Shown: positions 15,620 through 40,563 of the stretch, piece after piece
How the letters are laid out: every line of letters starts with the position of its first letter
Position numbering within the stretch: the first letter of the stretch is position 1
NCBI GenBank assembly: GCA_007376385.1
Contig: VMGC01000001.1
Location: forward strand, 224,001 to 288,000
Direction of reading: 5' to 3'
DNA length: 64,000 bases
Origin: Parcubacteria group bacterium Gr01-1014_8
GTDB taxonomy: Bacteria; Patescibacteriota; Minisyncoccia; Phycocordibacterales; UBA2100
Program-made: the position numbers and the translations under genes
Notes under the pieces: model-generated
Database searches by the model: none
What the model saw: the letters and a program-made list of their open reading frames with translations, nothing else
What the model was told of the DNA's origin: nothing

Positions 15620-16340
15620 GTCCTGAACTACCGACCTCGGTGGTTTTTTTGACCCTCCTGTGAGGAGGGACAGAAGGCTTGAACTTTGACAACTGAATAT
15701 GAAAAATTGTACGCAAAACCAAAAAAGAAATTGGTAAGTAAAATTGTTGCCGGCGCTCGCTCGGAATTGAAAATTTATTTTCATTTCGCTCGCTCGCATG
15801 GGCAATAAGAATTCTTGTTGTTCTCAAGTTAGGAACAATAAGACACACACAAAAGCAAGAAAACAGAAAATACATATTGAGGTTCCAGGAGGATCTCATG
15901 TGTAAGTAAACAGTAATAACGAGACAAAAGATCCCCCAAGGGGACTGCGACTTTCTACGATTCAAATGAATCGTGAAAGTCGGGAGATATACATTCTTTT
16001 GTTTCGTCCATCCTAGAGATATTGAAGCAATTCAAATTCTTGAAAGTGGTGTAAAAACCATTTTTACTTAGAGTTTGATCCTAGCTCAGGGTGAATGCTG
16101 GCGGTATGGATAAGGCATGCAAGTCGAATGGGTTAGACCCATGGCAGACGAGGTAGTAACAGGTAGGTACGTCCCCGGAAGTCGGGCATAACCAGCCGAA
16201 AGGTTGGATAATTCCCGATGGTCTCGCAAGAGTAAAGATTTATCGCTTCCGGAGCGGCCTGCTTTGTATCAGCTTGTTGGTGAGGTAACGGCTCACCAAG
16301 GCTATGACGCATAGGGGACCTGAGAGGGTGACCCCCACCG

Positions 16341-16377
<37 letters not shown>

Positions 16378-16891
16378 TGCAGCCGAGAATATTCGACAAT
16401 GGGCGAAAGCCTGATCGAGCGATACCGCGTGGTGGATGAAGCGCTTCGGCGCGTAAACACCTTTTATGAGGGAAGAAATTTTGACGGTACCTCATGAATA
16501 AGGGGCTCCTAACTCTGTGCCAGCAGGAGCGGTAATACAGAGGCCCCAAGCATTACCCGGAATTACTGGGCGTAAAGGGTGCGTAGGTGGTCATATTAGT
16601 CGCCTGTTAAAACCCACGGCTCAACTGTGGAACCGCGGGCGAAACGGTATGACTAGAGAGAGTGAGAGGTGAATGGAACTCATGGTGTAGGGGTGAAATC
16701 CGTTGATATCATGGGGAACACCGAAAGCGAAGGCAATTCACTGGCACTTTTCTGACACTCAAGCACGAAAGCGTGGGTAGCGAACGGGATTAGATACCCC
16801 GGTAGTCCACGCCCTAAACGATGATCGCTGGATTTGGGGAGTATCGACCCTCTCCGAGTCGAAGCTAACGCGTTAAGCGATCCGCCTGGGT

Positions 16892-16923
<32 letters not shown>

Positions 16924-17390
16924 AGACGGGGGCTTGCACAAGTGGTGGAGCGTGTGGCTCAATTCGTCGCTAAGCGAAGAACCTTACCAGGGCTAGAAAT
17001 CCAGCTGCATACTTTGGGAAACCTTAGTAGCCTTCGAGGGTGCTGGACAGGTGATGCATGGCTGTCGTCAGTTCGTGGTTTGAATCGTTCCCTTCAGTGG
17101 GGTAACGAACGCAACCCTCGTTGCCTGTTATATTTGTCAGGCGAGACTGCCCCCTCACGGGGGAGGAAGGTGAGGATGACGCCAAGTCAGCATGTCCCTC
17201 TGATGTCCTGGGCTGCACACGCGCTACAATCGCCGTTACAACGAGGCGCAACGTCGTAAGACCGAGCAAATCTTTCAAAAGCGGCGCCAGTTCGGATTGA
17301 GGTCTGCAACCCGACCTCATGAAGCCGGAATCACTAGTAATCGCGGGTCAGCCACACCGCGGTGAATACGTTCTCAAGCCTTGTACTCAC

Positions 17391-18234
17391 AATAAAAGCG
17401 CACAGCAGTGTACATATCTATGCGGTTAAAATCCGCACCTCTCTTTCGTACAGAGAGCGTAGCAGAAGGATAGTTGTTATCCGCGAGGATGATAATGGAG
17501 GATCCTAATGCAAAGAGCAGCCATTTCGCACAAAAGCCGACCGACCTGTCAATGGGTGGTGAGGATAGGGAAGGTCCTAGAAAGGCAAGAAAATGGATGC
17601 CTAGAACAGATACGCACATAACCTGTGGAGATCTGACGCTGTTATCCCAAAGATGGGATATGATGAATCTGACGCAGCGTCAGAAGTCAGCTGAGTCATA
17701 GTATTTGCAGATATGCAAAAAAGGACTCACTCAAAGCAAAATCTTAGTCCAGATTATGTTGTTGGACTCGTAGATGGTGAAGGAAGCTTTACTGTCTACG
17801 TAAGAAATCCAGACATAGAGAAAAAAGTCGCTCGAAGAGTGGTTGTAGAGCCAAAATTCTACATAAAACTAATCGAACGCGACAAAGATATTCTCTATGC
17901 ACTTCGAGATTTCTTCGGATGTGGAAGTATTTACTTCCAAAAAGATAATCGTCCGAATCATCAACATTGCTATCGTTACGAGGTCTTCCGGTGGGAAGAA
18001 CTTCAAACGATAATCATTCCGTTCTTCAAGCGGCACGTTCTCAAATTCGCGTCAAAACGGCACGACTTTGAAGTGTTTTGCATGATGATGGAGCTTCTCA
18101 AAAAAGAAGCACATCGAACGGAAAAAGGACTACGAGAGTTGTTTAAGTTGAAACAACGCATGCATTGAGCTCGCGTAGTGCGGGAAATCCGCTCGCTACG
18201 TGGGAACATCAATTCTTAGATTCAAGAAGATAAT
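17391..18234 (+). mobile_element. Intervening sequence (intron) in the 16S rRNA near E. coli position ~1390-1400, carrying a homing endonuclease gene
   Basis: The 16S collinearity breaks after CCTTGTACTCAC (17390) and resumes at CGCCCGTCAACTC (18235). The 844-nt insert contains the LAGLIDADG ORF. Confidence 0.6.
17713..18168 (+). CDS. LAGLIDADG homing endonuclease (single-motif type), intron-encoded
   Basis: 151 aa. VVGLVDGEGSF is a LAGLIDADG motif. The gene lies entirely inside the 16S insertion. Confidence 0.8.
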   Translation: MQKRTHSKQNLSPDYVVGLVDGEGSFTVYVRNPDIEKKVARRVVVEPKFYIKLIERDKDILYALRDFFGCGSIYFQKDNRPNHQHCYRYEVFRWEELQTIIIPFFKRHVLKFASKRHDFEVFCMMMELLKKEAHRTEKGLRELFKLKQRMH

Positions 18235-18488
18235 CGCCCGTCAACTCAGGGAAGCCGGGAGTGTCCGAAGCACATACTCGTTATGTACCAAGGCAAACTC
18301 GGTGACAAAGAGTAAGTCGTAACAAGGCACGGCTAGCGGAAGCTGGTCGTGGATTCATTCAAAATTGATTTCGATTTTCAGGTTCGCCTGATAATCGGAG
18401 CAGTCGATTTCTGTATCTCGATCGAGTACAGAAGAAGGTATGACATTGATCCTCAAACATGTCGGACAACTTGGAAAGACAAGTGGAT

Positions 18489-18600
18489 AATGGACGGAAC
18501 AAAAGAGTGTGTATATAGATCAGGTTATAGGTTACAGCTTGTAGCTTGTAGGAAATGCGAACAAACAAAAACGCCGACTCGATATGAGCACGGCGTTTTT
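18489..18600 (+). repeat. Intergenic repeat element copy A (22-mer AATGGACGGAACAAAAGAGTGT ... terminator hairpin CAAAAACGCCGACTCGATATGAGCACGGCGTTTTT)
   Basis: The 22-mer is identical at 20812-20833. The 35-nt hairpin/T-run module is near-identical at 20901-20937. The hairpin is followed by a U-run on both strands, so it may terminate in both directions. Confidence 0.6.
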
Positions 18601-18974: not shown

Positions 18975-19070
18975 AGGGAAAAGAGTGTGTATGAAGAATA
19001 GCTGGTAGCTTGTAGCCAGCAGCTTGCAGCAAATACAAAACGCCCGAAAGGGTGGTTTTGTGTTGCAGCG
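18975..19070 (+). repeat. Intergenic repeat element copy C (AAAAGAGTGTGTAT...AGCTTGTAGC...AAAACGCC hairpin)
   Basis: Shares AAAAGAGTGTGTAT and the ...ACAGCTTGTAGC...AAATNCNAACA...AAAACGCC backbone with copy A. It follows the 115-aa ORF. Confidence 0.45.
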
Positions 19071-19113: not shown

Positions 19114-20778
19114 GTGATATGCTTTTTGTATATGACTGACGGGTTGAAAGAATGGAAGAAGCCGGAAGTAACAGACATTTCTTCTGAAGAGCCAGTAAAG
19201 GAGAAAGCGGAGCTGACAGAAGAATTAAAAGATCATATCAGGCAAGACTTGGAATTGGATACGTACGACACACCAGAGAAAGCGAAAAAACGCCGTACGC
19301 AATTGGCAATATTTTATGGTACGAACGTGCAGCAGATTGGGGCAGTTTCTGCGTATAAAAAGCGCGATGGTAAATTAAGCTTAGAGGCAAAATTTGAAAA
19401 ACTACCTCCCGCTCCACCGAAAATCGAAACAGAGTATGACAATTTTACAAAGCGTGCATGGCGGCAGAAAATCTTCAATGCTATAAAGAACGATTTTACT
19501 CAAGAGCAGCTGCAACGTGCTCGAGTCCTATGTTTTCCCGGACAAGCTTTACAAGAGGTGACCGAAGTTTATTTGCCACTAGGTATTCGACCAGAAAATA
19601 TTGTGTGTATTGAGAAGGATCCAGATGTTGTGAAAACCATGAGAAAAAACCTCAAGGCACTCATCCAAACGAAGGTGCTGAGCCAATCTGTCTCCATTTT
19701 CGAAGGAAGTGTCGAGGAATTTTTACAGAGCTCACATGAGCCCGTAACCATCGCTTCATTCGATCTTTTGGGGCCTATGTACGAGGGATTTTTGATGAGT
19801 ATTCCCAATCTCCGTGTCGCGGATAAATTCATGGTTATTACGAATTGTTTGCAGCGCAGGGAACAGAAAAATCAGCAAGATGCATTGAAGTCAATGACGT
19901 CAGCAACGCGTGCGGTAGGGAGCGCACTCGATGCGCTCCAGAATTATAAGCACATTCTCCCGGGTGTTGGCAGCACATCTTTCGACGTGAGTCACCTCAT
20001 GGCTCAAATTGCAAGGGCAAATCAACAACCGATAGACCTTTCAGAAGCGCGAGATGAAGGTGCGGCTATCACGATGATAGCTTTTCTCTTAGGAGGTCAA
20101 GCCAAACAGTCACTCGATGATCTCTACTCTGAAGCTAGCATCGTTCCACCGCGGTTCAAGTCAGATGACGACCGACAAGCTTTTGAAGATCACACGCTCG
20201 GAACACTGATACGTGGGATTGAACAATTAGTTATAAACTATTCTAGAGTGTATTCGCGATTGTCGCTGAAATCCGACGTAAACATATTGGAAAACACCCT
20301 TAGTAGAAGCGATACCGGAAAACATGGATTTTTATTGCACTTTCTCACCGTGGCGACGCATTGCATGAGCGATCTTACGATTTGCGATTTACAACGGTAT
20401 GAATATTCAAGCGAGAAATCCGGGTCTCCATATCAGACGGATGTGATCACGTTGTTTGATTGGAAGCGGAATTTCCGCGAGAAGCATCGGGAAGCATATC
20501 ATTTCATCCGAGATTGTTTTCGAGTGATCGGTCAACACTCGGTAGATCAGATTTCCTTCCAGTTTAAAAAAGGCATCACGGTTTTACCGAAAAACTATGC
20601 TGGCAGCAACGCAAAGATAGATTTAACGGTGAACGTAAACGGCAAGCAGTTTCTCAGTATATCGTTCAGCAAACTCCTTGAGCTAGTGGCTTACTTTAGG
20701 AAAACGGAGAAAATCGTTACAAAAGGAAAAATACCACAGGACTTTTTGGAACGGCCGCGAATCAAGATAGAAACATAG
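19114..20778 (+). CDS. Hypothetical protein (554 aa); N-terminal ~240 aa resemble a Rossmann-fold SAM methyltransferase
   Basis: VLCFPGQALQEVTEVYL (motif-I-like, compare Erm/KsgA hhEIGPGxGxLT), IVCIEKDPDVV (motif II hhhhExD) and FEGSVEEF (compare Erm/KsgA IHGDALKF). The C-terminal 300 aa are unrecognised. The gene lies in the AT-richer insert downstream of the 16S. Confidence 0.5.
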   Translation: MICFLYMTDGLKEWKKPEVTDISSEEPVKEKAELTEELKDHIRQDLELDTYDTPEKAKKRRTQLAIFYGTNVQQIGAVSAYKKRDGKLSLEAKFEKLPPAPPKIETEYDNFTKRAWRQKIFNAIKNDFTQEQLQRARVLCFPGQALQEVTEVYLPLGIRPENIVCIEKDPDVVKTMRKNLKALIQTKVLSQSVSIFEGSVEEFLQSSHEPVTIASFDLLGPMYEGFLMSIPNLRVADKFMVITNCLQRREQKNQQDALKSMTSATRAVGSALDALQNYKHILPGVGSTSFDVSHLMAQIARANQQPIDLSEARDEGAAITMIAFLLGGQAKQSLDDLYSEASIVPPRFKSDDDRQAFEDHTLGTLIRGIEQLVINYSRVYSRLSLKSDVNILENTLSRSDTGKHGFLLHFLTVATHCMSDLTICDLQRYEYSSEKSGSPYQTDVITLFDWKRNFREKHREAYHFIRDCFRVIGQHSVDQISFQFKKGITVLPKNYAGSNAKIDLTVNVNGKQFLSISFSKLLELVAYFRKTEKIVTKGKIPQDFLERPRIKIET

Positions 20779-20811
20779 TAAAGATATGTGTGACCTTAGG
20801 AAAGGCGGGGG

Positions 20812-20937
20812 AATGGACGGAACAAAAGAGTGTCCCGACGCGCGAGAGCGGTCGGGATCCCGACCGAAGCGTCGGGATGTATTGAAGAAAATGCTACAAC
20901 CAAAAACGCCGACTCAACATGAGCACGGCGTTTTTTT
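20812..20937 (+). repeat. Intergenic repeat element copy B (22-mer + GC hairpins + terminator CAAAAACGCCGACTCAACATGAGCACGGCGTTTTTTT)
   Basis: Direct repeat of copy A, separated from it by ~2.3 kb that contains the two unknown ORFs. Confidence 0.6.
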
Positions 20938-21657
20938 GATTTGGATTTGATATTCCTCCCGGCGGCAATGCAGGCACTGCCGCCAGGAAGACTTTCCCTC
21001 ACTGGGTTGGTCGTTTCTCAAAAGCCGTTGGCTTGGCTACGGTTTTTCGTGCCCACTGGCGTGACCGCCGGTTGGCTCCGTTGCTGGGCTTGCGCCCGCG
21101 CCTCTTCTTTCGAGTACTTGTCCTGTGCCCCATTCGGCACTCCCTATGTTCGAGTAAGCATTTGCAAAGAGCGGATTCCCTCTGCCACGTCGAACGTAGC
21201 ACGTATGTAGGTGCTTTGTCACGCTTTACTAAAGTAGAGTGGTGTATACGAACATAAAAAACACCGAGACAATTCTTAGGCACAGCAGCGCTTGAATGAA
21301 CGTGTCCCAACTAAGCACCGCCGACCCGGGAGGGTCGGCGGTGCTGGTTGTTGCCAGAGAGTGGGTATCCAGCGCGAGGGCTACTTACGTCCGTGCTTCT
21401 GTTTCTTCTTCCTCTTGCCGGCATTCTTCCCGCAACGAGGATTCCAATTGGAAGCCTGACGTGCTTTCGCCTCCGAATGGTTGTGACCGCGATGGCCCAT
21501 TTTCGTACCTCTCAACGTGGCATCATTGCCGCGGCTAAAGTAGCACATGAGCCATGGTTTTGCTACCATCGCGGGTACAAGCGCGTTTAGCTCCGGCGGA
21601 TGATACAGACACATCGGTCGCAGCGAGGCGCGGTTTGGAGTAGATTGGTTTGATAAC

Positions 21658-21729
21658 GCGCGTTTAGCTCAGTGGTAGAGCATCCCTCTGATAAGGGGAA
21701 GGCCGTAGGTTCAATCCCTACAACGCGCA
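21658..21729 (+). tRNA. tRNA-Ile (anticodon GAT)
   Basis: GCGCGTT acceptor, AGCTCAGTGGTAGAGC D-arm, anticodon loop CTGATAA (GAT), T-arm GGTTCAATCC, 3' acceptor AACGCGC plus A. CCA is not encoded. Confidence 0.85.
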
Positions 21730-21933
21730 CAAAAGACAGAAACACCTGCCGCAACGGCCAGGTTTTCTGCTTTTGTGGGAGCCGGAGCGATGTTGCGCGA
21801 GTACGCGCAACCGCGAGGCCGGGTCGGGAAAATTTGTTTGGGACGACAAACAAATTATTCCTGACCACAAGTCCATGTGTGACCACACTTCGACTCAAGA
21901 CGCACTCAGTGTACACTGAGTGCGACAATATCT

Positions 21934-23235
21934 ATGAACTATCACGTCATCGGCGGGAAAAAACTCTCTGGTTCTGTGCGGACCAATACTTCAAAGAACG
22001 CTGCAGTCGTACTGCTTGCGGCATCACTTTTGAATCGCGGAACTACAACGCTGAAGAGGATGCCGAAGATAGAGGAAGTGAACCGACTTATCGAGGTCAT
22101 GAAAAGTATCGGCGTGAAAATAGAGTGGACCGACAAGGAAATGACCATAATGCCTCCGAAAGAATTCGACCTGAAGAATGTAGACAAAGTCGCTGCGCAA
22201 AAAACCCGAAGCATAGCGCTTTTTATCGCCCCCCTTGCTCACGTGATGGATTCTTTTGACCTCCCCGCGCCAGCCGGATGCGATTTGGGCAAAAGAAGTC
22301 TCGGTGCGCACATTGACGCACTGGAGCGTCTCGGTATTTACATCAGCGGGGATGAAAAAAAGAATTCATATCACACTGAAGTTAAAGATAAGCAGCTGGC
22401 AGAAATAATCATGTATGAGGCGAGCGACACAGGCACAGAAAATGTGTTGATGGCTGCTGCTAAAATTCCCGGCAAGACGGTCATTAAATTCGCGAGTGCA
22501 AATTACATGGTTCAGGATCTATGTTTCTTTCTGGAAAAATGCGGTGTCAAAATTGAGGGCATCGGTACTTCAACGTTGGTTGTTCACGGAGTGAAAGACA
22601 TTGGTCTCGATGTTGTTGATGCGCCAAGCGAGGACCCGATTGAATCAATGTTTTTCATCTCCCTCGCCGCAACAACCGATTCGGAACTGACTATTGAAAG
22701 ATGCTCCATTGATTTTCTTGAGCTGGAGCTGCTTACTCTCGAACATATGGGCTTGAAATACAAAGTGGGAAAAAAATATCTGGCCGAAAATGGGCGCACG
22801 ACCTTATGCGATATCAAGATAAATAAATCAGAATTGCATGCACCGCCGGAGAAAATAGCTCCGCGTCCATATCCCGGCATCAACATCGATAACCTTCCGT
22901 ATTTCGTTTCTATTGCGACGCAAGCAAAAGGGGAGACGCTTATCCATGACTGGGTCTACGAGATACGCTCGTCCTACTATCTGGAAATGGCAAAGCTCGG
23001 CGCAGATGTAAAAAAACTAGACCAGCATCGCGTGTTAGTCAAAGGTCCCACGCCGTTACATGGCACAAATATCAAAGCGCCGCCTGCGTTTCGTCCTGCA
23101 TCTATCCTCCTCATCGGCATGCTCGCGGCCGAAGGCGAATCAACACTTTATGATGTGTATCCGATAAACCGCGGATATGAGAATTTGCACGAGCGATTGA
23201 AGTCGCTCGGTGCAAACATTGAAGCGATTGATTAA
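21934..23235 (+). CDS. murA: UDP-N-acetylglucosamine 1-carboxyvinyltransferase
   Basis: EPT-family fold. The GG[AG]K..G.V....SKNA motif is present as GGKKLSGSVRTNTSKNAAV, and there is a C-terminal INRGYENLHERLKSLGANI. Confidence 0.85.
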   Translation: MNYHVIGGKKLSGSVRTNTSKNAAVVLLAASLLNRGTTTLKRMPKIEEVNRLIEVMKSIGVKIEWTDKEMTIMPPKEFDLKNVDKVAAQKTRSIALFIAPLAHVMDSFDLPAPAGCDLGKRSLGAHIDALERLGIYISGDEKKNSYHTEVKDKQLAEIIMYEASDTGTENVLMAAAKIPGKTVIKFASANYMVQDLCFFLEKCGVKIEGIGTSTLVVHGVKDIGLDVVDAPSEDPIESMFFISLAATTDSELTIERCSIDFLELELLTLEHMGLKYKVGKKYLAENGRTTLCDIKINKSELHAPPEKIAPRPYPGINIDNLPYFVSIATQAKGETLIHDWVYEIRSSYYLEMAKLGADVKKLDQHRVLVKGPTPLHGTNIKAPPAFRPASILLIGMLAAEGESTLYDVYPINRGYENLHERLKSLGANIEAID

Positions 23236-38379: not shown

Positions 38380-39210
38380 TCAACGTGACTTGTGCACCAG
38401 AGCATTCAGACGTGCCTGGGCGTCGGTTATCTTCCGAAAAGCATCATGGCTTTCGTGGTGGGAGTGGGTTTGCCAGATAGGTATCAACTCATTTAGTGTG
38501 GCAAGCATACCGGCAAGTTCAGCTTTACTTTCTTCGTGTTCAAGCCAGGAGATATCCGCATCGTTCATGATGTTCAACATACGGTTTATACGCGCAGTTG
38601 TGCGCTGGACGGCATCGAGAAGGAGTACTTCTCTGCCAGGGTCGATAACATACAGATCACTTATGACGTCGTAGAAATTCGGTATTTCTTTGAGAAGGCT
38701 TGAGATCTGTTGGTACGCGATGGTGAGCCTTTCCCACTCAGCGTCCGTGAGCGCATTGTTGTTCTCAACAAGTTGAATGACGTGATCAAAATCCTTGCGT
38801 GCAACATAAAAATCTTCTCGAATACTCCGGAACGTTAGTTCAAATGATAGCTGATGGACTTCTTTTATTGACTTGTCTTGCCGGTAAGATACGAGTTTTG
38901 CGATGAAGAGAGCGAAAAGAAACAGCTCAGTGACGCTTTGCAGAGCAGCAAAAAATCGTGAATATCCTAGAGGGACGATATCGCCGTACCCCGTGTTTGT
39001 TGCTGTTATGACACTGTAGTAAAGGCTATTGAGCATCCGGCCGAGGAAGGGAAGTTCACTTAGCCCGCTCGGTCCATTTCCTGGTACGTAACTCAAGGCG
39101 ATGTAGATAGCAGCATATATAAGTACGCTTGAGACCCAGAACAGGAAAATCACACTGTACGACAACTCGTTCACTCTATCGATGAATGTCAGTCTGTTTT
39201 TTGTTTCCAT
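38380..39210 (-). CDS. Two-TM potassium channel family protein with a cytoplasmic C-terminal domain
   Basis: Selectivity filter TATNTGYGDIVP (TxGYGD) between two TM helices. About 170 aa of soluble C-terminus. Confidence 0.7.
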   Translation of the reverse strand: METKNRLTFIDRVNELSYSVIFLFWVSSVLIYAAIYIALSYVPGNGPSGLSELPFLGRMLNSLYYSVITATNTGYGDIVPLGYSRFFAALQSVTELFLFALFIAKLVSYRQDKSIKEVHQLSFELTFRSIREDFYVARKDFDHVIQLVENNNALTDAEWERLTIAYQQISSLLKEIPNFYDVISDLYVIDPGREVLLLDAVQRTTARINRMLNIMNDADISWLEHEESKAELAGMLATLNELIPIWQTHSHHESHDAFRKITDAQARLNALVHKSR

Positions 39211-39240: not shown

Positions 39241-40563
39241 CTAAAATGTAGCATTTTCTAGAAATTCTATTCGTTCTTTCATTGTTGGATGAGTGCCGAA
39301 CCACCACTGTAAGAATCTTGGCGGGTCGGGATCAACAAAACTTTGGTACGTCATTTTCCTGAATGATGTGATAGCGGGCTTAGTCGCATGCGTTAATTCG
39401 AAACCGAACACATCTGCTTTATGCTCGATGTCGCGGCTGATAGCGGAATCGATAGGGGCAGCAAGCAGCGACATGGTCGAGAGAATAACGCCAAGGAACG
39501 GGTAGAGCACGATGTCGTTGACACGCGTGGAGCCAATGCGTTTACCCCATTTTTTCAGCACGTACCAAAGAATGAGTGCGAGGAGTCCTAACGATATGAA
39601 TGTCTCGATAGCATACTGCACGATACCTCTCCACATGTCGTGTTTTACATAGTGGCCAAGTTCATGTCCAAGGATTGCCAGGATTTCGTCGTCTGTGTAA
39701 TACGTGAGCAATGTGTCATCGAGTACGACGCGTTTCGTGCTCCACAATCCCGTCATGTATGCGTTGCTCTCGAGTGTGCGAGTACTTGCGTCCTCGACAA
39801 AGACGCGGTCGACAGATATTCCGGCAGAATCGGCGAGCGTAATTATCTTTTCCTTAAGAACGCTATCTTCAAGCGGGACATTTCTGCTGAAGAGCGGGTC
39901 TATCACGACGGGAGCGATGTACCCGGTGAAAATGCTAAACAAGGTTAGAAATGCCGCACCGAGTGCCCACCAGGCTCTTGGATATTTATCCATTATCCAG
40001 TAGAGAGGTATGAATGTCGCGATCGCGAATACGAATTCGAGAAAGAGGTTCAACACGAGATCCTCGACTGCGAGAAGGGGCGTTATGTTTGAAGTTCCTC
40101 GCAGAAGCTCAATGTAATAATCGGATACATACGTTGGGAGCGCGATGAACGTTGATAGCAGAACCATTCCTAATAGATAATAGGAACGTTGTGCATGCAC
40201 GTTTCTATAGAGGCGTTTAGCAAGATTCGCGAGTGCGCTGCTTACGCCCCCAAAAATGATCAACCACGCGATGAAAAACGAGAACAAGATACCGACGACA
40301 AGACTCACCTCATAGAATGCACTCTCGAATCGCGCGACTTTTGTCCACTCGCCGTTTTCAAGGTCAATAGATTCAACAGGAGGAAGTACGTTGTCTCGAA
40401 GGTCTTTTTCATGAGAGAGAAAGGCCTCCTTTAAGGGGCCAGTCGCAAAATAATGGTACGCAGCGAATGATGCCGACTCTACTATCGCGCTGATGACAAG
40501 AAGCAGCACTATTTTTTTAAGAATACTCATGAGAATAGCGGCTCCCTCTTTTTTGATATACAT
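39241..40563 (-). CDS. M48 family zinc metalloprotease (Ste24/HtpX-like) with multi-TM N-terminal region
   Basis: HELGHYVKHD (HExxH) zinc motif after several TM helices. Confidence 0.75.
   Translation of the reverse strand: MYIKKEGAAILMSILKKIVLLLVISAIVESASFAAYHYFATGPLKEAFLSHEKDLRDNVLPPVESIDLENGEWTKVARFESAFYEVSLVVGILFSFFIAWLIIFGGVSSALANLAKRLYRNVHAQRSYYLLGMVLLSTFIALPTYVSDYYIELLRGTSNITPLLAVEDLVLNLFLEFVFAIATFIPLYWIMDKYPRAWWALGAAFLTLFSIFTGYIAPVVIDPLFSRNVPLEDSVLKEKIITLADSAGISVDRVFVEDASTRTLESNAYMTGLWSTKRVVLDDTLLTYYTDDEILAILGHELGHYVKHDMWRGIVQYAIETFISLGLLALILWYVLKKWGKRIGSTRVNDIVLYPFLGVILSTMSLLAAPIDSAISRDIEHKADVFGFELTHATKPAITSFRKMTYQSFVDPDPPRFLQWWFGTHPTMKERIEFLENATF

Follow-up and report, generated by a model that had tools for sequence, protein, structure and literature searches.

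What fills the GC-rich interval between the 16S rRNA side of a Parcubacteria locus and its tRNA-Ile gene, if tRNA-Ile is followed by murA and not by 23S rRNA? The locus belongs to Gr01-1014_8, a Parcubacteria metagenome-assembled genome (MAG), and was analysed within a 64-kb stretch, called the window here, whose numbering is used for all positions unless another locus is named. From left to right it consists of the 16S side, the interval in question (20940–21657), tRNA-Ile(GAT) and murA (at 21934). An earlier note on this DNA proposed that the minus strand of the interval carries a decayed or inverted remnant of the 5' end of 23S rRNA, or else one unrelated structured RNA. The present analysis suggests a different answer. 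The interval is probably an intergenic control region between the 16S unit and the tRNA-Ile/murA unit, which combines a bidirectional terminator, one or possibly two minus-strand units made of a small open reading frame (sORF) and a hairpin, a two-way promoter and a tRNA leader (Table 1). All of these elements are present, in related loci the palindrome, a small basic ORF and the hairpin after it are conserved in position, and there is no resemblance to 23S rRNA or to any Rfam family.

The observations from which the 23S proposal started are sound. tRNA-Ile, detected by Rfam and ARAGORN, has no intact 23S gene after it and murA comes next, and the GC content of 0.54–0.56 over 20900–21650 exceeds that of the ORF to the left (0.42–0.43) and that of murA (0.45–0.49). 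At gathering thresholds, Rfam detects a 16S gene, two tRNAs and a weak intron match, and nothing else, in the whole 64 kb; it finds no 23S gene anywhere in the window, and the 104 related loci that were fetched contain none either. The 23S gene of this genome is located elsewhere.

Two sets of loci were used for comparison. Close relatives from the candidate phyla radiation (CPR), L001–L008, were retrieved by a murA-based scan of species genomes (murA identity of 87% for L001 and 67–72% for L002–L008), and 23 further loci, L082–L104, came from one metagenome scan with the palindrome as the search pattern, giving 31 related loci in total. The related loci include Hainich contigs, which derive from groundwater filtered at 0.1 µm, and a contig with an identical murA is present in run SRR8863434. 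The close relatives share the gene order 16S, tRNA-Ile, murA, tRNA-Leu. The layout of the clade is 16S, terminator, variable cargo, small basic ORF, palindrome, tRNA-Ile, murA.

Table 1. Elements of the locus, in window coordinates except where another locus is named
Feature	Position	Strand	Description
Putative bidirectional intrinsic terminator	20897–20937	both	Hairpin with A-run on the left and T-run on the right; second copy of the post-16S module
Hairpin A	20953–20990	−	Continuous 17-bp stem including 3 G-U pairs; begins at most 6 nt after the sORF2 stop
sORF2 (window-specific, tentative gene)	20999–21133 (21133→20999)	−	44 aa + stop: MGHRTSTRKKRRGRKPSNGANRRSRQWARKTVAKPTAFEKRPTQ
GGGAG purine motif	21140–21144	−	6 nt 5' of the sORF2 ATG
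Putative promoter-like site	21193–21222	−	GTGACA, 18-nt spacer ending in TGC, TACGTT
Hairpin B	21314–21345	−	Perfect 14-bp stem, arms AGCACCGCCGACCC / GGGTCGGCGGTGCT; ΔG −35 kcal/mol, z −7.9
sORF1	21381–21500 (21500→21381)	−	39 aa + stop: MGHRGHNHSEAKARQASNWNPRCGKNAGKRKKKQKHGRK; occupant of the clade slot
GAGAGG purine motif	21508–21513 (21513→21508)	−	7 nt 5' of the sORF1 ATG
Quasi-palindrome	21537–21569	both	AAAGTAGCA-N14-TGCTACCAT, core GTAGCA-N14-TGCTAC at 21540–21565; putative two-way promoter
tRNA-Ile leader	21570–21657	+	Holds a copy, GCGCGTTTAGCTC, of tRNA positions 1–13 at 21581–21593
tRNA-Ile(GAT)	21658–21730	+	ARAGORN; Rfam 74.7 bits
Candidate decarboxylase-gene leaders in relatives (examples, among others)	L002 3248–3527; L087 5552–5830; L086 5262–5551; L091 3366–3620; L094 1871–2155	−; −; +; −; +

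The palindromic element and the tRNA-Ile leader

The part of the interval that is shared with other genomes is short. According to blastn and tblastx comparisons with the close relatives, it comprises only 21520–21593, immediately 5' of the tRNA. The remainder, 20940–21520, has no similarity by either program in any of the 31 related loci, where matches are limited to the putative promoter and the leader, and a global alignment with L001, the closest relative, carries no meaning beyond the promoter element. No homologues of 20940–21530 were found among plasmids or phages, two pattern scans of viral contigs returned chance 16-mer matches only, and a self-blast detected no further copy of the interval within the window.

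The shared stretch contains a quasi-palindrome that most likely works, judging from its sequence, as a two-way promoter. On the plus strand, GTAGCA is predicted to serve as the −35 and TGC-TACCAT as the extended −10 of tRNA-Ile; on the minus strand, TGC-TACTTT is predicted to be the extended −10 of sORF1. The palindrome is kept in L001, L002, L006 and L008, all of which were fetched via murA and not via the pattern. It is also found in the 23 metagenome loci, but these were selected by the search pattern itself, so the conservation of the pattern in L082–L104 is by construction, and the independent support consists of the four murA-fetched loci and the fixed relation of the palindrome to the tRNA. 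In every locus that reaches far enough, tRNA-Ile starts 7–112 nt 3' of the palindrome and murA is next. The distance is just 7–10 nt in eight loci, the spacing expected of an extended −10 (TGC-TACYAT) whose transcript starts at the tRNA. On the minus strand, TGCTACTTT reaches two bases past the fetch pattern, and those two bases are kept in 20 of the 23 fetched loci. From this arrangement we infer promoter activity in both directions.

The orientation of the tRNA varies in two relatives. tRNA-Ile is inverted relative to murA in L003 (1700–1772) and L004 (3840–3912); the palindromic element is inverted along with the tRNA in L003, and L004 carries a different, canonical-looking promoter.

The leader of tRNA-Ile has a peculiarity of its own. 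The 13-nt copy of the tRNA 5' end that it holds is identical to 21658–21670 at 13 of 13 positions. Relatives with long leaders (L093, L088, L008, L087 and L098) likewise carry a copy of their own tRNA 5' end, which tracks the acceptor stem of each genome. The copy is followed by a conserved CCGGYGGATGATAC in the window, L088 and L093, and L008 departs from it after CCGG; L093 duplicates the downstream part of the leader copy (GTAGCTCCGGTGGATGATAC). The copy could be an insertion scar, a product of gene conversion or a functional decoy. On the other side of the tRNA, a perfect 24-nt palindrome, CGCACTCAGTGTACACTGAGTGCG, occupies 21901–21924, with its end 9 nt 5' of the start codon of murA; an operator and the terminator of tRNA-Ile are both conceivable roles for it.

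The small basic ORF slot and its hairpin

The proposed organisation of the interval is as follows. The palindrome would drive tRNA-Ile rightwards and, leftwards on the minus strand, a short mRNA with an unstructured leader of ~30 nt that would encode the very basic 39-aa peptide of sORF1 and end in, or be stabilised by, hairpin B with its 14-bp stem. Further downstream on that strand, a second unit of the same layout would consist of GTGACA-N18-TACGTT with a TGC extension, GGGAG, the 44-aa sORF2 and the 17-bp hairpin A, and would adjoin the bidirectional terminator, which would also stop rightward transcripts from the 16S gene and the cargo. With this organisation, the GC richness and the ‘structure’ of the interval would come from terminator or insulator hairpins between convergent units and from Arg/Lys/Gly-rich coding sequence, and not from an rRNA remnant.

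sORF1 had been pointed out in the earlier note as a 39-codon, Lys/Arg-rich ORF preceded by GAGAGG, and both the ORF and the purine motif are confirmed. The ORF starts 47 nt from the palindrome, 44% of its residues are Lys, Arg or His (K/R/H), and the leader around GAGAGG is unstructured (z −0.7). Almost all related loci have a very basic ORF of 31–82 aa in the same place, on the strand opposite to tRNA-Ile and starting 32–96 nt from the palindrome. An ATG-initiated ORF with a length of 39 aa or more and a K/R/H content of 25% or more, at 25–100 nt from the palindrome, is found in 16 of 22 distinct loci, compared with 3.9% of dinucleotide shuffles per locus (Poisson-binomial P ~1e-19), and any ORF of at least 39 aa occupies the slot in 19 of 22 loci versus 21% of shuffles. 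The relatedness of the loci, the post hoc choice of the criteria and the retrieval of most loci with the palindrome make such P values optimistic.

In three pairs of relatives, the slot ORF is under purifying selection. The ratio of nonsynonymous to synonymous substitution rates (dN/dS) is 0.19 for L092/L095, 0.22 for L098/L100 and 0.37 for L086/L006. In L092/L095, the corresponding ratio of proportions (pN/pS) is 0.26 in frame versus 1.68 and 0.75 in the other frames, and the differences at the three codon positions number 7, 8 and 18. Selection was measured in the ORFs of relatives, since no close relative carries the ORFs of the window itself. One subgroup of relatives has its sORF annotated as a hypothetical protein, with four homologues in databases. 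The sORFs of several subgroups cannot be aligned to each other, and the slot may hold either one very fast-evolving family or several unrelated occupants.

A hairpin after the sORF is another recurrent feature. Most relatives have a GC hairpin of ~10–14 bp there, often with a U-rich tail, and in 15 of 17 loci it lies no more than 30 nt from the stop codon. The 80 nt 3' of the stop have a mean z of −3.5, with 14 of 18 loci below −2. In 11 of 18 loci the sORF strand gives the more stable hairpin, with a mean difference of 1.9 kcal/mol, which is weakly informative for the strand. In the window this place is taken by hairpin B. The earlier note was right about a perfect hairpin but gave it a 12-bp stem (21317–21344), which is in fact 14 bp long; the predicted fold starts 29 nt and the 14-bp stem ~35 nt after the sORF1 stop. 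Hairpin A on the same strand forms at −33.3 kcal/mol (z −7.3), compared with −20.2 kcal/mol (z −3.1) and interrupted pairing on the plus strand, and this asymmetry of 13 kcal/mol points to a minus-strand RNA element. The tails of hairpins A and B are AUAUCAAAUCC and UUAGUUGGG. The two hairpins may act as stabilisers, processing sites or partial terminators, and transcripts may terminate at them.

The putative bidirectional terminator to the left belongs to a module that is linked to the 16S gene. Throughout the clade, the 16S gene is followed by its 3' processing stem (GGACGGAACAAAAGAGTG in the window, complementary to 15987–16011) and a hairpin/T-run terminator. The hairpin and T-run arrangement is maintained in the relatives and the sequences differ. 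In the window, the module is found at 18489–18600 and 20812–20937, with a partial third copy at 18979–19064, and brackets two cargo ORFs. The segment 20897–20937 is 93% identical to 18561–18600 and folds at −16 kcal/mol (z −3.5) on the plus strand and −20 kcal/mol (z −5.0) on the minus strand, with a U-run 3' of the stem in both directions. A consensus terminator scan does not call it, probably because of an internal loop.

The 3' tail of the 16S gene (18340–18356) reads GGATTCATTC(AAAA) and not GGATCACCTCCTT; CCUCC, the anti-Shine-Dalgarno (anti-SD) motif, is absent from it, as it is from the 16S tails of L002, L083, L091, L101, L103 and L104. A Parcubacteria subgroup without the anti-SD motif has been reported previously (Tsurumaki et al. 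2022, PMC9297842). Among the long ORFs of the window, 45 of 52 have no SD-like motif. A GGAG or GAGG motif, read by eye, is located 5–16 nt before 17 of 19 sORF starts of the clade, compared with 7 of the 52 ordinary genes. Many long ORFs have a TATACT/TATAAT-like hexamer 6–10 nt before the ATG, a pattern that suggests widespread leaderless mRNAs.

The same material could be read without any peptide: the small ORFs would be untranslated, and the clade would keep a short divergent non-coding transcript that ends in a hairpin, be it a by-product of a symmetric promoter, an insulator against antisense transcription into 16S or a small regulatory RNA. The absence of an anti-SD from the 16S rRNA fits such a transcript, as do the poor codon scores of the window ORFs, the lack of conservation of the peptide sequence across the clade and the fact that the hairpin is the most constant feature of the slot. 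This reading is nevertheless improbable in view of the retention of an ORF well above the shuffled expectation, of frame-specific substitutions with a dN/dS of 0.19–0.37 in three pairs and of the preserved basic composition. The two window ORFs are presumed to be translated.

A number of observations weigh against a control region built around a translated sORF1. Neither direction of the palindrome passes a consensus promoter scan, the hexamers matching the sigma-70 consensus at 3–4 of 6 positions. In searches with a family hidden Markov model (HMM) and in 18 phmmer searches, sORF1 stays at noise level among the ORFs of the window, and neither window ORF has a detectable homologue, the sORFs of relatives included. 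In the closest relative, L001 (murA identity 87%), the slot is taken by an unrelated basic ORF of 44 aa. Since homology is lacking, the assignment of sORF1 to the slot is based on position, size, charge and layout. Its codon-usage score is −0.01, compared with 0.15 ± 0.07 for coding sequences of the genome. Hairpins A and B have no clear U-tract, and neither is called by the terminator scan. Finally, the GGAG-like motifs cannot be classical Shine-Dalgarno sites because the 16S rRNA of the clade has no anti-SD.

Databases add little to the identity of these ORFs. The six ORFs of the region belong to no family in Pfam, NCBIfam, PADLOC or PHROGs; the window ORFs and ten ORFs of relatives obtain no meaningful Pfam or NCBIfam score, and sequences from the PDB give nothing credible. 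A 77-aa extension of sORF1 is in the public record as ‘hypothetical protein G01um10148_243’ of Parcubacteria group bacterium Gr01-1014_8, and a search of a collection of 5.8 billion proteins with the 77-aa ORF returned only the protein itself. The corresponding search with the sORF of a relative gave a small hypothetical family. The 39-aa start is likelier because the longer version would run across the conserved promoter.

The 23S-like motifs and a possible second unit

The proposal of a 23S remnant was based on three short motifs on the minus strand of 20950–21260 that resemble motifs of 23S domain I and are ordered alike, in a genome where 23S does not follow tRNA-Ile. All three are present in that order: ACGTGCTA (21205→21198), GCCGAATGGGG (21139→21129) and AAGTACTCGAAAGAAGAGG (21119→21101). 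Their resemblance to 23S is at chance level. A Smith-Waterman alignment to positions 1–600 of E. coli rrlH scores 22, dinucleotide shuffles score 19.5 ± 2.2, and 39 of 200 shuffles do equally well or better. A blastn search with the minus strand against all 5,426 complete E. coli genomes gives no match at E ≤ 10. With permissive filters and E ≤ 10, cmscan of 20700–21800 finds no large-subunit rRNA (LSU), RNase P, tmRNA or 6S RNA, only noise-level alignments of unrelated small RNA models to the hairpins, and 20935–21320 has zero matches to any Rfam family; ARAGORN finds no tmRNA.

The motifs have a simpler explanation. ACGTGCTA overlaps the promoter-like TGCTACGTT (21201→21193), the second motif corresponds to the start codon of sORF2 (GCCGA-ATG-GGG), and AAGTACTCGAAAGAAGAGG covers sORF2 codons 6–11 (T S T R K K) and extends by one base into codon 12. 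Furthermore, 23S is unlinked in 31 of 31 related loci, none of which shares the sequence of the proposed remnant, so the break of the operon is older than the clade, whereas the sequence in question is specific to one genome. A decayed inverted 23S fragment left by the break is therefore extremely unlikely, and, as far as the tools used can tell, the interval is not an rRNA remnant. The small ORF and the hairpin to which the earlier note drew attention prove meaningful for another reason, as occupants of a slot that relatives keep.

The suggestion of a structured RNA unrelated to 23S fares little better. The 720 nt as a whole fold better than shuffles (z ~ −6 on both strands), and this, with a GC content above that of the neighbours, could indicate a single long, structured non-coding RNA from a novel class, encoded on one or the other strand. 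A sliding 120-nt scan confines the signal to three discrete hairpins; the supposedly 23S-like stretch 21000–21260 between them has z from −0.3 to −2.8. The sequence between the hairpins is not conserved, and outside the promoter element nothing is conserved in the 31 loci, plasmids, phages or viral contigs. No Rfam family matches, and covariation cannot be shown because there are no homologues. A long structured RNA is thus very unlikely. A further candidate, terminal inverted repeats like those of miniature inverted-repeat transposable elements (MITEs), was dropped, as the 9-bp perfect core of the inverted repeat in question (20962–20977 and 21517–21532) is at chance expectation by our own estimate.

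The stretch that had been taken for 23S contains instead what may be a second copy of the sORF unit. sORF2 is the second of 481 ATG-initiated window ORFs by net positive charge, and sORF1 would rank beside it. The two peptides both begin with MGHR (MGHRGHNHSEAK... and MGHRTSTRKK...). TGCTACNTT is found at just three places in the window; two of the copies are on the minus strand of the interval, one in the promoter-like site of unit 2 and the other in the arm of the palindrome. The third copy (39245–39253, minus strand) is located 35 nt 5' of a minus-strand gene (38380–39210), which fits a promoter role of the motif. A consensus scan misses the unit 2 site because its −10 hexamer has 3 of 6 matches.

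Whether unit 2 is functional is less clear than for unit 1. It is conceivable that unit 1 alone is functional and that 20940–21313 is a fast-evolving spacer or a decayed cargo remnant at an insertion hotspot; sORF2 would then have arisen by chance in purine-rich DNA, and hairpin A would be a leftover or a back-up terminator. Several facts agree with this. Relatives differ in the length of the spacer that separates the 16S terminator from the palindrome (~0.3 to 10 kb), and moderately diverged members cannot be aligned across it. A second TGCTACNNT site and a second basic ORF are absent from all relatives, and two minimal loci, L083 and L104, carry an additional GC hairpin beside the 16S terminator. 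Neither sORF2 nor the 103-aa ORF that encloses it has a homologue or an entry, including in the collection of 5.8 billion proteins, the codon score of the 103-aa ORF (−0.11) is below the coding range given above, and units 1 and 2 cannot be aligned as DNA or as protein; these points and the lack of a second unit in relatives also count against the two-unit organisation. On the other hand, dinucleotide shuffles of 20940–21313 yield a basic ORF (≥40 aa, ≥35% K/R/H) in 0.3% of cases, and in 0.07% if an upstream GGAG/GAGG is added. sORF2 also shares the MGHR start of sORF1, the rare TGCTACNTT, a purine motif at equal distance and a strand-asymmetric hairpin after the stop, and tblastn, tblastx and nhmmer detect no trace of the cargo genes of relatives or of their 5' untranslated region (UTR). 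On balance, a single functional unit next to spacer or debris appears somewhat unlikely. Unit 2 as a gene unit is plausible but unproven, and its origin as a diverged duplicate of unit 1, by tandem duplication, would be suggested by their common layout, TGCTACNTT and the MGHR start, in the face of sequences that do not align.

Neighbouring genes, implications and comparison with known systems

The space between the 16S module and the palindrome carries different genes in different genomes. In the window, the cargo consists of a 115-aa membrane-like ORF and a 554-aa ORF (19114–20778). The latter belongs to no Pfam or PHROGs family and has weak matches to PADLOC mad2 (E 0.007) and to the NCBIfam model of the HinfI restriction enzyme (E 0.06); possibly it is a cargo gene of methyltransferase or restriction-like type. 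In L001, the module is present at 1966–2037 and 2824–2925, around a MazF/antitoxin-like pair. The locus looks like an insertion hotspot, with each cassette followed by a copy of the module. The distance from the module to the palindrome is ~0.3 to 10 kb among the relatives, many of which have a minus-strand gene similar to ornithine decarboxylase or S-adenosylmethionine (AdoMet) decarboxylase in this space. The possibility that the interval is a pseudogene of this decarboxylase cargo was rejected, as tblastn with the proteins and nhmmer with the 5' UTR detected no trace of it.

The polyamine-type decarboxylase genes of the relatives have a common promoter and a 5' UTR of ~150–200 nt with invariant blocks (for example TTGTCAG...ACATCAGAGATG). 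This UTR, which may be a cis-regulatory leader of polyamine genes, has no Rfam match and was not found in the window by nhmmer.

The 16S gene of the window (16063–18356) is itself interrupted. An insertion of ~830 nt (~17398–18230) splits it near E. coli position ~1400, and the 3' exon begins at ~18231. The insertion contains an ORF for a LAGLIDADG homing endonuclease (17713–18168) and a weak match to the Rfam family group-II-D1D4-1 (17639–17726, 42 bits); at the equivalent place, L002 has a match to a group I intron.

For annotation, these results remove a false lead, since the locus contains neither an rRNA pseudogene nor a new large RNA, and they show that the public 77-aa call overlaps a conserved promoter element, its likely product being 39 aa long. 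For the biology of CPR bacteria, they define a recurring locus layout and a small basic protein, conserved in position and variable in sequence, that automated annotation has mostly missed. As things are, the locus is a modest curiosity made of ordinary parts, in which the clade keeps the slot, the size, the charge and the terminal hairpin of a small gene and not its sequence.

As a guess from their charge and their proximity to rRNA and tRNA genes, the peptides may bind nucleic acid or the ribosome. A far bolder proposal, and a doubtful one, is that the slot encodes a lineage-specific family of tiny, very basic and extremely fast-evolving proteins that bind rRNA, tRNA or the ribosome, a family that is duplicated here and has a GGAG-type leader unable to pair with 16S rRNA, in a clade whose reduced ribosomes lack the anti-SD. 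If true, this would be a new class of ribosome- or RNA-associated small proteins kept for charge and position rather than sequence, and SD-like motifs would serve a non-SD role. Proof of an association of the sORF protein with the ribosome or RNA would be relevant to the working of the reduced ribosomes of Parcubacteria, which lack the anti-SD.

The elements of the interval can be compared with four known systems. With the 5' domain of 23S rRNA, as described by the Rfam model LSU_rRNA_bacteria, the interval shares no more than an 8-mer, a 10-mer and a 6-mer that are ordered alike; unlike in the 23S domain, the GCCGAAUGGGGCAC stretch of the window folds as a small local hairpin of its own and holds a start codon. 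The GC hairpins resemble intrinsic or bidirectional terminators between convergent genes in that they follow stop codons, 20897–20937 has U-runs on both strands and a U-run is common in the post-sORF hairpin of relatives, but hairpins A and B differ from such terminators by the absence of a proper U-tract.

Small basic ribosome-associated proteins such as bL34, bL36, bS22/Sra, Thx and mycobacterial bL37 are 25–60 aa long, rich in Lys, Arg and His and encoded by separate short genes. The sORF peptides are like them in size, in composition and in having stand-alone short genes, and the sORF gene adjoins rRNA and tRNA genes. Ribosomal proteins are strongly conserved in sequence; the slot peptides have no sequence similarity to these proteins and are unalignable with each other even at 87% murA identity.

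Divergent, or bidirectional, bacterial promoters can arise from symmetry of the DNA sequence. The window element is likewise an inverted repeat (GTAGCA / TGCTAC) with −10-like and −35-like hexamers on both strands and with genes in both directions. Unlike in the typical picture of a divergent promoter, a single arm of the element would be the −35 in one direction and the extended −10 in the other, which places the predicted transcription starts ~45 bp apart.

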